Assembly: GCA_965116905.1 (NCBI GenBank)
Contig: OZ220732.1
Span: 2,176,001-2,240,000, forward strand
Direction of reading: 5' to 3'
From: Longimicrobiales bacterium
Lineage (GTDB): Bacteria; Gemmatimonadota; Gemmatimonadetes; Longimicrobiales; Gaopeijiaceae
DNA length: 64,000 nt
Below are positions 57,809 through 58,912 of the stretch, one piece after another. Position numbers and translations under genes: made by a program. Numbering within the stretch: the first letter of the stretch is position 1; the number at the start of each line of letters is the position of its first letter. The notes beneath the pieces were generated by a model. It was given only the letters and a program-made list of their open reading frames with translations. It did no database searches and was not told the origin of the DNA.

Positions 57809-58912
57809 CTACGTCGGTACGGAAGGATTGCCCCGACCGTCGTCAGGTTTGTGCGCATGCACGAGAAAGCAGGGCGTGAAGACGCCCGCCTCGCCCGCCT
57901 CGACCAGAGCGTCGGCCGCCCCATTGAGGATACGGGACGCTTCACCCACACCGGCCGGCGCGATGCGGAGCTGTTCGAACAGGGAGACTGCGCGGGCGGT
58001 GAACCAACGGCCGACCGGAATGCGCGCCACCGACGTGAGCGAGAAGTCGCGTCCCTGAAGCGACCGGTACCATGGGGAGTCCGGATCGCTATCGACAGCC
58101 TGGTCCCGGCTCGATAGAACATCAAAGCCCGCCGCCTCCACGGCGTCGACGAACTGTGCAGTCGTCGGAAGGTCGGGAGTAGCGTTCGCGAATTCGACCC
58201 GGTCCCGGATGTCGCGATGAACCGGGTTGCTCTCGTCGAAGAGGTCGGTAAGACACCACTCGGTCAGGGCGATCCGGCCGCCCGGCCTGAGAAGGCGCCA
58301 AAGCTCACCGAAACAGACATCCCTGTCGGGCGTGTGGCAGATGGCCTCGAACGAGTAGGCGGCATCGAAGCAGCCGTCGGCGAGAGGTACATCCAGGTAA
58401 TTGGCCAGCAGGAAATCGCAGGTCTCCTCCAGTCCCGCCTTGCGTGCCGCCCTGCGACAGCGCGCGATCTGGTATGCGTTGAAGTTCAGCCCCGTTATGC
58501 TGGCGCCGGTTGCCCTCGCAATGTTGATTGCGGGTCCCCCGACACCGCATCCAATGTCGGCGACCCTCATCCCGGGATTGAGATTCAAGACTCCAGCCAC
58601 GCCAGCCTCCTGGCGGCGTTGCGCGGCGTGAAGACCTTCCCCGGATCGTCTCGGCGCGAAGTGGAAGGACTGTCCCCAGGCATACTCGTAGAACCTGGTG
58701 ACCACGTCGTAGAATCGGCTCACCATCTTGGGTTGATCGGGTATGACGCGATCGCCGTTTCGGGCTGTGACCAGTTTCTTGAGTTGCAGAAAGTCGTCGA
58801 GCGCCTCCCGCAGGGTGCCGCCGCTGTTTGCCTCAACCAGGCGGCCACCCCGCGTCTCTTCGGACGAGCGGCGTTCCCTCCACGCAGGTTCGGTCTCGCG
58901 GCTCATGTTCAT
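57809..58912 (-). CDS. Sterol 24-C-methyltransferase-like protein (SMT/ERG6 family)
   Basis: FYEYAWGQSFHF, DIGCGVGGP, EAICHTP, TEW and C-terminal IAPAG...LVEAG..GVFTPCFLVHAHKP. Confidence 0.88.
   Translation of the reverse strand: MNMSRETEPAWRERRSSEETRGGRLVEANSGGTLREALDDFLQLKKLVTARNGDRVIPDQPKMVSRFYDVVTRFYEYAWGQSFHFAPRRSGEGLHAAQRRQEAGVAGVLNLNPGMRVADIGCGVGGPAINIARATGASITGLNFNAYQIARCRRAARKAGLEETCDFLLANYLDVPLADGCFDAAYSFEAICHTPDRDVCFGELWRLLRPGGRIALTEWCLTDLFDESNPVHRDIRDRVEFANATPDLPTTAQFVDAVEAAGFDVLSSRDQAVDSDPDSPWYRSLQGRDFSLTSVARIPVGRWFTARAVSLFEQLRIAPAGVGEASRILNGAADALVEAGEAGVFTPCFLVHAHKPDDGRGNPSVPT

Follow-up and report, generated by a model that had tools for sequence, protein, structure and literature searches.

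A sterol methyltransferase-family gene on a 1220-bp insert in the genome of a sponge-associated Longimicrobiales bacterium

The gene, its insert and its flanks

The window analysed here is a stretch of 64,000 nucleotides from the genome of a Longimicrobiales bacterium (G000; one contig, 4.21 Mb, 97.4% complete). It contains a gene of the SMT/ERG6 methyltransferase family, P0001, encoding 367 amino acids (Table 1). The second ATG, at 58906, is the likelier start, as judged from the alignment with the copy of a congener, G021. The four SMT signature regions and the C-terminal domain named in the original prediction are all present: Sterol_MT_C (PF08498) scores 61.5 bits (cut-off 21.7; E 8e-17). 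Methyltransf_11, with 76.3 bits, is likewise above its cut-off (E 3e-21; both Pfam). As a control, the Sterol_MT_C search matched 0 of 14 control genomes. Non-sterol methyltransferase families of NCBIfam remained far under their cut-offs, the best at 63.9 against 550. With 10 of the 150 representatives looked up by name, those that come closest are the cycloartenol C-24 methyltransferase of rice (45%) and an Erg6 cluster from Cladosporium, and the neighbouring Atlas clusters are assigned to the sterol methyltransferases at 0.99. The placement in the ERG6/SMT1 family is thus supported by the domain, the motifs and the closest named relatives, and P0001 is assigned by its sequence to a kind of enzyme already published. 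No grouping with non-sterol methyltransferases, which would have spoken against the prediction, was seen in trees that hold no named tocopherol methyltransferase.

From the predicted structure (pLDDT 81), only the class I methyltransferase fold was recovered, with matches to TleD, RebM, MitM and a GPP methyltransferase. No solved SMT structure was among these matches, and their non-sterol nature is a consequence of there being no solved SMT. An Rfam scan of the window gave 0 matches.

The gene lies on an insert. In 9/9 loci read, out of 18 congeners with the flanking gene P0002, the site is empty: P0002 adjoins the DUF1592 gene, with no SMT. In the sponge-metagenome runs X4 and X5, contigs pass from 57784 to 59005 across 25 different letters. 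The G021 copy is located at another site and has its cassette ends in common with this one (57783-59009). The likeness to relatives at the DNA level is limited to the gene and its edges; an acidobacterial copy (77.8% identical over 1014 bp) and a congener copy (77.5%) are equally close. The GC3 of the gene is 0.753, under the 5th percentile for a genome with a mean of 0.857 (own gene caller). On inspection by eye, neither end of the insert shows a transposase or a duplicated target site. A sponge-metagenome run contains 75% of the sampled words of G000, and near-identical DNA of the gene (13 differences in 917 bp) is present in a sponge-metagenome run. None of the runs listed with this DNA is an RNA run, which speaks neither for nor against expression.

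The N-terminal part of P0002, with a CxxC...CxxC pattern (Trm112-like), is joined to a carnosine N-methyltransferase-like domain. The protein has at least 404 homologs, the best named relatives being Gemmatimonadetes. It was rejected as an operon partner of the SMT, as it occurs without one in 9/9 congener loci.

Upstream of the DUF1592 gene, immediately beyond the edge of the insert, lies a 33-bp element (59013-59046) whose end adjoins a TAGAAT hexamer; it has four further copies in the genome, at about 91-94% identity, and is possibly regulatory. Between a hydrolase gene and P0002, about five 21-bp units are arranged in tandem (56231-56315), and a contig of run X3 omits 43 bp there.

Table 1. 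Features of the locus and of a second sterol-like module in the same genome. Positions are those of the window unless a genome coordinate is given.
Feature	Position	Strand	Basis or remark
Insert of 1220 bp carrying P0001	57785..59004	.	Absent in 9/9 congener loci read; skipped by contig joints of two sponge-metagenome runs
14-bp relic similar to the opening codons of the Rieske oxygenase gene found after the SMT in relatives	57785..57798	-	By eye against L058, L025, L184, L023, L027
SMT/ERG6-family methyltransferase gene P0001, 367 aa	57809..58912	-	One open frame
Sterol_MT_C domain, residues 299-356	57845..58018	-	Pfam search
Codon 243 for Asn, at yeast position 249; 4/4 known propylating SMTs have Gly	58184..58186	-	
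Region IV, LRPGGRIALTEW, residues 208-219; G217 retained, Y223 changed to T	58256..58291	-	Sequence
Region III, FEAICHTP including E195, residues 188-195	58328..58351	-	Sequence
Region II, SAM binding, DIGCGVGGP, residues 119-127	58532..58558	-	Sequence
Region I, sterol binding, FYEYAWGQSFHF, residues 74-85; Y81, Y83, A84 in yeast numbering	58658..58693	-	Sequence and preprint numbering
Weak sigma-70-like site (9/12), 5' edge of the insert	58972..59000	-	Consensus match only; similar site in G021 copy
Flanking gene P0002, zinc-ribbon-like and carnosine N-methyltransferase-like protein	56346..57770	-	19/53 genomes of the genus
Second sterol-like module of G000	G000:C1:1966930-1981560, on to ~1983050 (L003:4931-19559, L062:1441-4053)		

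The clade and its Rieske partner

In a FastTree phylogeny, P0001 and its relatives form one side of a branch (36/150 rows, support 99-100). The same clade takes up 12/54 rows in IQ-TREE (LG+G4), with support of 99/94, or 100/100 together with its sister row P0155. Before the trees were built, 53/150 representatives not spanning residues 70-340 were left out, as well as P0222 and P0197, which have garbled motifs, and a duplicate of P0001; the IQ-TREE row L107, with a branch length of 3.3 and an odd composition, is to be disregarded. Neither the cyclase-linked sponge SMTs nor the second paralog of G000 nor the group of named eukaryotic rows falls within the clade, in trees with only four such eukaryotic rows, no sponge SMT, mostly unnamed rows and unresolved deep nodes. 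The original prediction had described the enzyme as eukaryote-type. At the family level this stands, and in trees with plant, fungal and bacterial rows the gene does group with SMTs; however, it belongs to a bacterial clade outside the four named eukaryotic SMTs and is nested among them in neither tree.

The clade comprises at least 120 sequence clusters and is a bacterial one across six phyla, that of G000 included: outside the genus, its members come from records labelled Acidobacteriota, Chloroflexota, Spirochaetota, Myxococcota and Acidimicrobiaceae. One member is from record LXNI01, a Sarcotragus foetidus metagenome (Brown et al. 2023, PMC10070321). A metagenome scan with the clade alignment gave, among the matches listed, relatives at 37-49%, three tested SMTs included. 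A C-terminal motif, PWYxxLQGRD, is common to P0001 and the tested Petrosia and Sarcotragus metagenome SMTs; the sister relation to cyclase-linked sponge SMTs that it suggested gained no support from either tree. In a literature search with subscription journals mostly outside its coverage, no papers on the clade or on an SMT and Rieske cassette were found.

The stem of the clade is long and well supported (0.45 + 0.23 changes per site). The aromatic residue of Region IV is gone (Y223 to T, I or V in 112/120 members), and the pocket is changed clade-wide: I194 to F in 101/120, T197 to I in 101/120 and G250 to A in 109/120. Among 97 wider representatives, F194 occurs in 11, I197 in 10 and A250 in 24. 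The three substitutions first remarked on in P0001 (YEYAWG, FEAICHTP and TEW) are real, but mostly not private to this gene. All 25 residues conserved in active SMTs are retained in 63/120 clade members.

The partner of the clade SMT is a steroid-type Rieske oxygenase. Of the 12 genomes with a clade locus, seven have a full Rieske + KshA_C gene directly after the SMT or one gene on; 58 codons of it are left in G021, a few codons' worth (by eye) in G000 and L027, and none in two broken copies. After the stop codon of P0001, only the 14-bp relic was found and no Rieske gene. Given this gradation from full partner to a few codons, the window holds a trimmed SMT and steroid-oxygenase cassette. It is likely that the gene arrived by horizontal transfer as such a cassette and that the oxygenase was lost later. 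For the intact partner, the PDB match is KshA (E 6e-39), and the automatic Atlas names are cholesterol 7-desaturase; a literature search on its identity as Neverland or KshA gave no title on a bacterial enzyme.

In a Spirochaetaceae locus (L028:2230-7160) and a Myxococcota locus (L029:8040-12871), the clade SMT is followed by a geranylgeranyl-reductase-like flavoprotein, a Rieske + KshA_C gene and a weak fatty-acid desaturase. No cyclase match was obtained in either genome. These four-gene runs are where a full pathway of the clade would best be sought. Another genome, G053, has two near-identical SMT and Rieske regions (L183, L184), one of them on a 14-kb contig, perhaps owing to strain variation or to duplication in the assembly; one of its Rieske copies looks fragmentary in the KshA_C search.

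Sterol-related genes of the genome and the genus

The whole G000 genome has 0 matches to the cyclase family PF13243 and 0 to squalene epoxidase (PF08491), so the lack of an oxidosqualene cyclase, reported at first for the window, holds genome-wide and extends to the epoxidase. An epoxidase-cyclase protein of a congener, used as a query, found nothing in G000, while the control cluster was matched at 1187 bits. Likewise, the proteins of the congener cluster, which matched the control cluster at 56-77%, revealed no cyclase, epoxidase or SdmA in G000, and a CYP51 query gave only P450 matches at 22-30%. The set that marks a CSG or msb-type cluster (ERG24, CYP51 and cyclase) was found neither beside the SMT nor elsewhere in the genome. 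The original prediction saw no sterol pathway in view. This is right as regards the cyclase, but the genome does carry a second SMT, an ERG4/24 reductase and a steroid-type Rieske oxygenase.

The second SMT is 36% identical and more divergent, with 22/25 conserved residues, ELMVFGWGESLHF as Region I and Ile at 249. Beside it are an AcrB-family pump and a GPP34-P450 fusion; about 7 kb away lie a flavoprotein of the amine-oxidase family and a Rieske + KshA_C gene. This gene set is compact in G020 and G024 (L069, L070), near an ERG4/24 gene, and its SMT is the commonest type in the genus. Furthermore, G000 contains an ERG4/24-family reductase gene, unlinked to P0001, a squalene-synthase-like gene (TIGR01559, E 7.5e-36, under cut-off) and two fatty-acid-hydroxylase-family genes. 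A search for KstD and other genes of 9,10-seco steroid catabolism gave five PF08028 matches and, at E <= 1e-15, one PF00890 match, which we take from its motifs to be a succinate dehydrogenase/fumarate reductase.

AcrB-family pumps recur beside isoprenoid genes of G000. Another GPP34-P450 fusion is accompanied by an acyltransferase and an AcrB-family pump (G000:C1:2576140-2582580, L064), and the squalene-synthase-like gene lies beside a third such pump (G000:C1:1291797-1296388, L073). For the pumps beside related genes, no NCBIfam family was over its cut-off; no sterol importer was found.

Within the genus, Sterol_MT_C is present in 33/53 genomes, an ERG4/24 match in 30/53 and KshA_C in 39/53. 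A cyclase match was obtained in 9/53 only (seven long, one cut by a contig end, one weak), and 27/33 SMT carriers have none. In a draw of 300 genomes from the phylum, SMTs were confined to two families (16/49 and 10/23), with 0/228 genomes in the ten other families. The P0001 clade itself occurs in 6/53 congeners, the copies being broken in two (G022, G064). Both have, in addition, a cyclase match and an SMT of the cluster type, and such breakage is what redundancy would predict (n=2). Among ten genomes with an intact clade gene, eight have no cyclase match and two have a cyclase.

Full sterol clusters are present in the congeners G011 (L060) and G064 (L061), with SdmB-like, SdmA-like, ERG24 and CYP51-like genes and an opposed SMT. 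Squalene epoxidase and cyclase are fused in G011 (1128 aa), and two frames were called in G064. IS and DDE transposases are located on the flanks of the G011 cluster.

Proposed reaction, alternatives and known systems

P0001 was scored at the 25 residues that active SMTs have in common (Brown and Welander 2025, bioRxiv 10.64898/2025.12.19.695621); their yeast numbers differ from those of P0001 by 6 throughout positions 74-268. It keeps 24 of them, the sole change being G84 to A. The tested SMTs L076, L079 and L103, scored as a control, each have 25/25, in agreement with the preprint for one of them, the Beatty enzyme. A rule requiring all 25 would leave P0001 out; a rice SMT1-like protein also has 24/25, so this rule is not absolute. 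The five residues reported as essential in yeast (H90, D125, G129, P133, E195) are all present. The identity to these three tested SMTs, which fall in other clades, is 41-43%. In the accessible text of Brown and Welander (2025), G84 is retained in every SMT assayed, and four SMTs with every conserved residue were inactive on both substrates; the Beatty SMT, among these, has all 25 as scored here. Motifs are thus no guarantee of activity.

The preferred reading, to which we give a probability of about 0.6, is that P0001 methylates imported sterols at C-24/C-28, once or perhaps twice. Activity, regiochemistry at C-24, uptake and a C28 (possibly C29) product are all what we infer. The sterols would be taken up from outside, since the genome lacks a cyclase and a squalene epoxidase. 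As in established SMT chemistry, SAM would methylate an isolated side-chain double bond, the aromatic residues of Region I stabilising the cation and H90 taking off the proton. Only an acceptor whose delta-24(25) or delta-24(28) bond is still free would do, the candidates being desmosterol, 24-methylene sterols and the 4-methyl delta-24 sterols of cyclase-bearing symbionts. Cholesterol, without either bond, would not serve as an SMT acceptor. The product would be C28, possibly C29, and not C30. With no ring synthesis in G000, the acceptor would come from the host, the diet or co-symbionts, and the host, dietary algae and co-symbionts with cyclase clusters, congeners included, fit equally. The suggestion of host-derived sterols is therefore sound as to an outside source, but the host is only one of three. 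Counted against methylation at C-24 are G84A, the modest identity to tested SMTs, the loss of Y223, the missing Rieske partner, the two intact carriers with cyclases and the failure to find a sterol importer.

Alternatively, the G000 copy would be an orphaned, weak or dead enzyme that lost its partner, then acquired G84A and is heading for decay as in the congeners. The partner gene is indeed down to 14 bp, the change is specific to the G000 branch and postdates its separation from the G021 copy, broken copies occur in 2/6 genus genomes with the clade, and insert-free strains are present in sponge metagenomes. Nevertheless, the frame is intact, and pairwise dN/dS is 0.15-0.26 in 8/8 comparisons. 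Polarised changes on the G000 branch (38 synonymous, 27 non-synonymous) give a pN/pS of 0.24, with a binomial p of 1e-8 against neutrality, which resembles the 0.20 of the G021 copy. The gene has been maintained by purifying selection over most of its branch, although very recent decay would not show. Moreover, Ala84 is found in 44/120 clade members, copies from the full cassettes L028 and L029 included, and in 12/97 wider representatives; a decaying orphan is, on balance, quite unlikely. Less likely still is a propylating SMT yielding 24-isopropyl sterols, the precursors of the sponge biomarker. Such a role would suit the sponge-associated host, as the known propylating SMTs come from symbionts, and Asn249 is small: the G249N mutant still made C29 sterols, though no C30. 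Gly249, together with Phe at 81, 83 or both, is found in each of the four propylating SMTs known, a rule resting on four enzymes, and C30 sterols were formed by 0/11 position-249 mutants (Brown et al. 2023, PMC10070321; Brown and Welander 2025, as far as accessible). P0001, on the contrary, has Asn at 249 and Tyr at both 81 and 83, and across the clade position 249 is Asn in 119/120 members and Gly in 0/120. Propylation is thus unlikely, and the bearing on sponge sterol biomarkers expected in the original prediction is weak as regards the 24-isopropyl link. A different SMT, that of the congener G007 (L008 / L072:8287-9309), has Gly249 with a changed Region I, YEYGWGRRQHF, and is a candidate test case for the propylation rule.

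The altered pocket raises the question of whether the clade methylates sterols in another way: at C-26 of a delta-25 sterol such as (epi)codisterol, in forming a side-chain cyclopropane, or on a nucleus altered by the Rieske enzyme. The long supported stem and the clade-wide changes at 194, 197, 223 and 250 favour this, and the gene order of L028 and L029 (SMT, geranylgeranyl-reductase-like, Rieske, weak desaturase) would suit a methylate-then-reduce sequence. C-26 enzymes are, in addition, stated to be undiscovered (Brown et al. 2023, PMC10070321, accessible part). Yet nothing is specific to C-26, each substitution also occurs in a minority of the wider representatives, and about half of the clade (63/120) retains the full conserved set, so we regard another chemistry as unlikely. 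Its boldest form is very doubtful: the mobile multi-phylum clade would be the still missing methyltransferase that acts on sterol C-26 or cyclopropanates the side chain, with which symbionts that make no rings build aplysterol- or 26-methylstigmastane-type skeletons, the Rieske enzyme and the reductase finishing the product. Similarly improbable is methylation of a self-made non-sterol lipid or isoprenoid, for example, a squalene-type chain. The squalene-synthase-like gene, under cut-off and without a cyclase in the genome, and the fold like those of TleD, RebM, MitM and GPP methyltransferase would agree with it; but the fold matches reflect the absence of a solved SMT, the non-sterol NCBIfam families score far too low, Sterol_MT_C and Region I are retained, and the partner is of the steroid type.

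If methylation at C-24/C-28 of imported sterols is true, it would be more evidence of sterol alkylation by sponge symbionts, many of them without ring synthesis, as in the SMT carriers of the genus. Sponge sterol profiles would then be the joint product of host, diet and several bacteria. P0001 is not directly relevant to 24-isopropylcholestane, as the residues linked to propylation are absent. The clade, with its altered pocket motifs, is a ready test set for the C-26 methylation question. Which SMTs build the biomarker side chains, those of the sponge or those of its symbionts, is described as unsettled (PMC12541326, accessible part).

Active SMTs from sponge symbionts, mentioned in the original prediction, are published (Brown et al. 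2023, PMC10070321). With these and the SMTs of uncultured bacteria (bioRxiv 10.64898/2025.12.19.695621), as far as the accessible texts describe them, P0001 shares both Pfam domains, Regions I-IV, a sponge-associated bacterial host and 24/25 residues. It differs in its separate clade, in Ala84, in the lack of a cyclase cluster and in lying on an insert derived from an SMT and Rieske cassette. The SMT of a Chlamydiae drinking-water MAG (Brown et al. 2023) likewise belongs to a genome without other sterol synthesis genes, and host-acquired sterols were proposed for it. An SMT in a genome without sterol synthesis is therefore already in print, and P0001 joins this published kind. The Chlamydiae enzyme, however, has Gly249 and Phe83 and propylates, whereas P0001 has Asn249 and Tyr83, as compared by published residues. 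In Ircinia, symbiont MAGs are enriched in SMT1/ERG6, and their steroid genes are reported to have been transferred horizontally (Kelly et al. 2022, PMC9531527). These SMTs, and the msb locus with MsbF (PMC7074536), resemble the present case in their spread over many phyla, Gemmatimonadetes included, their often scattered position on the chromosome and their horizontal transfer; the accessible parts of both papers, on the other hand, focus on ERG24-CYP51-cyclase clusters, with no split of SMT clades and no SMT and Rieske cassette. Eukaryotic SMT1/Erg6 enzymes are of the same family (identity over the aligned length 40% for rice cycloartenol C-24 methyltransferase and 33% for Cladosporium Erg6), but lie outside the P0001 clade in both trees and act within a complete pathway. 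To these known systems, the detail added here is the exact insert, the lost partner and the residues against the 24-isopropyl link.
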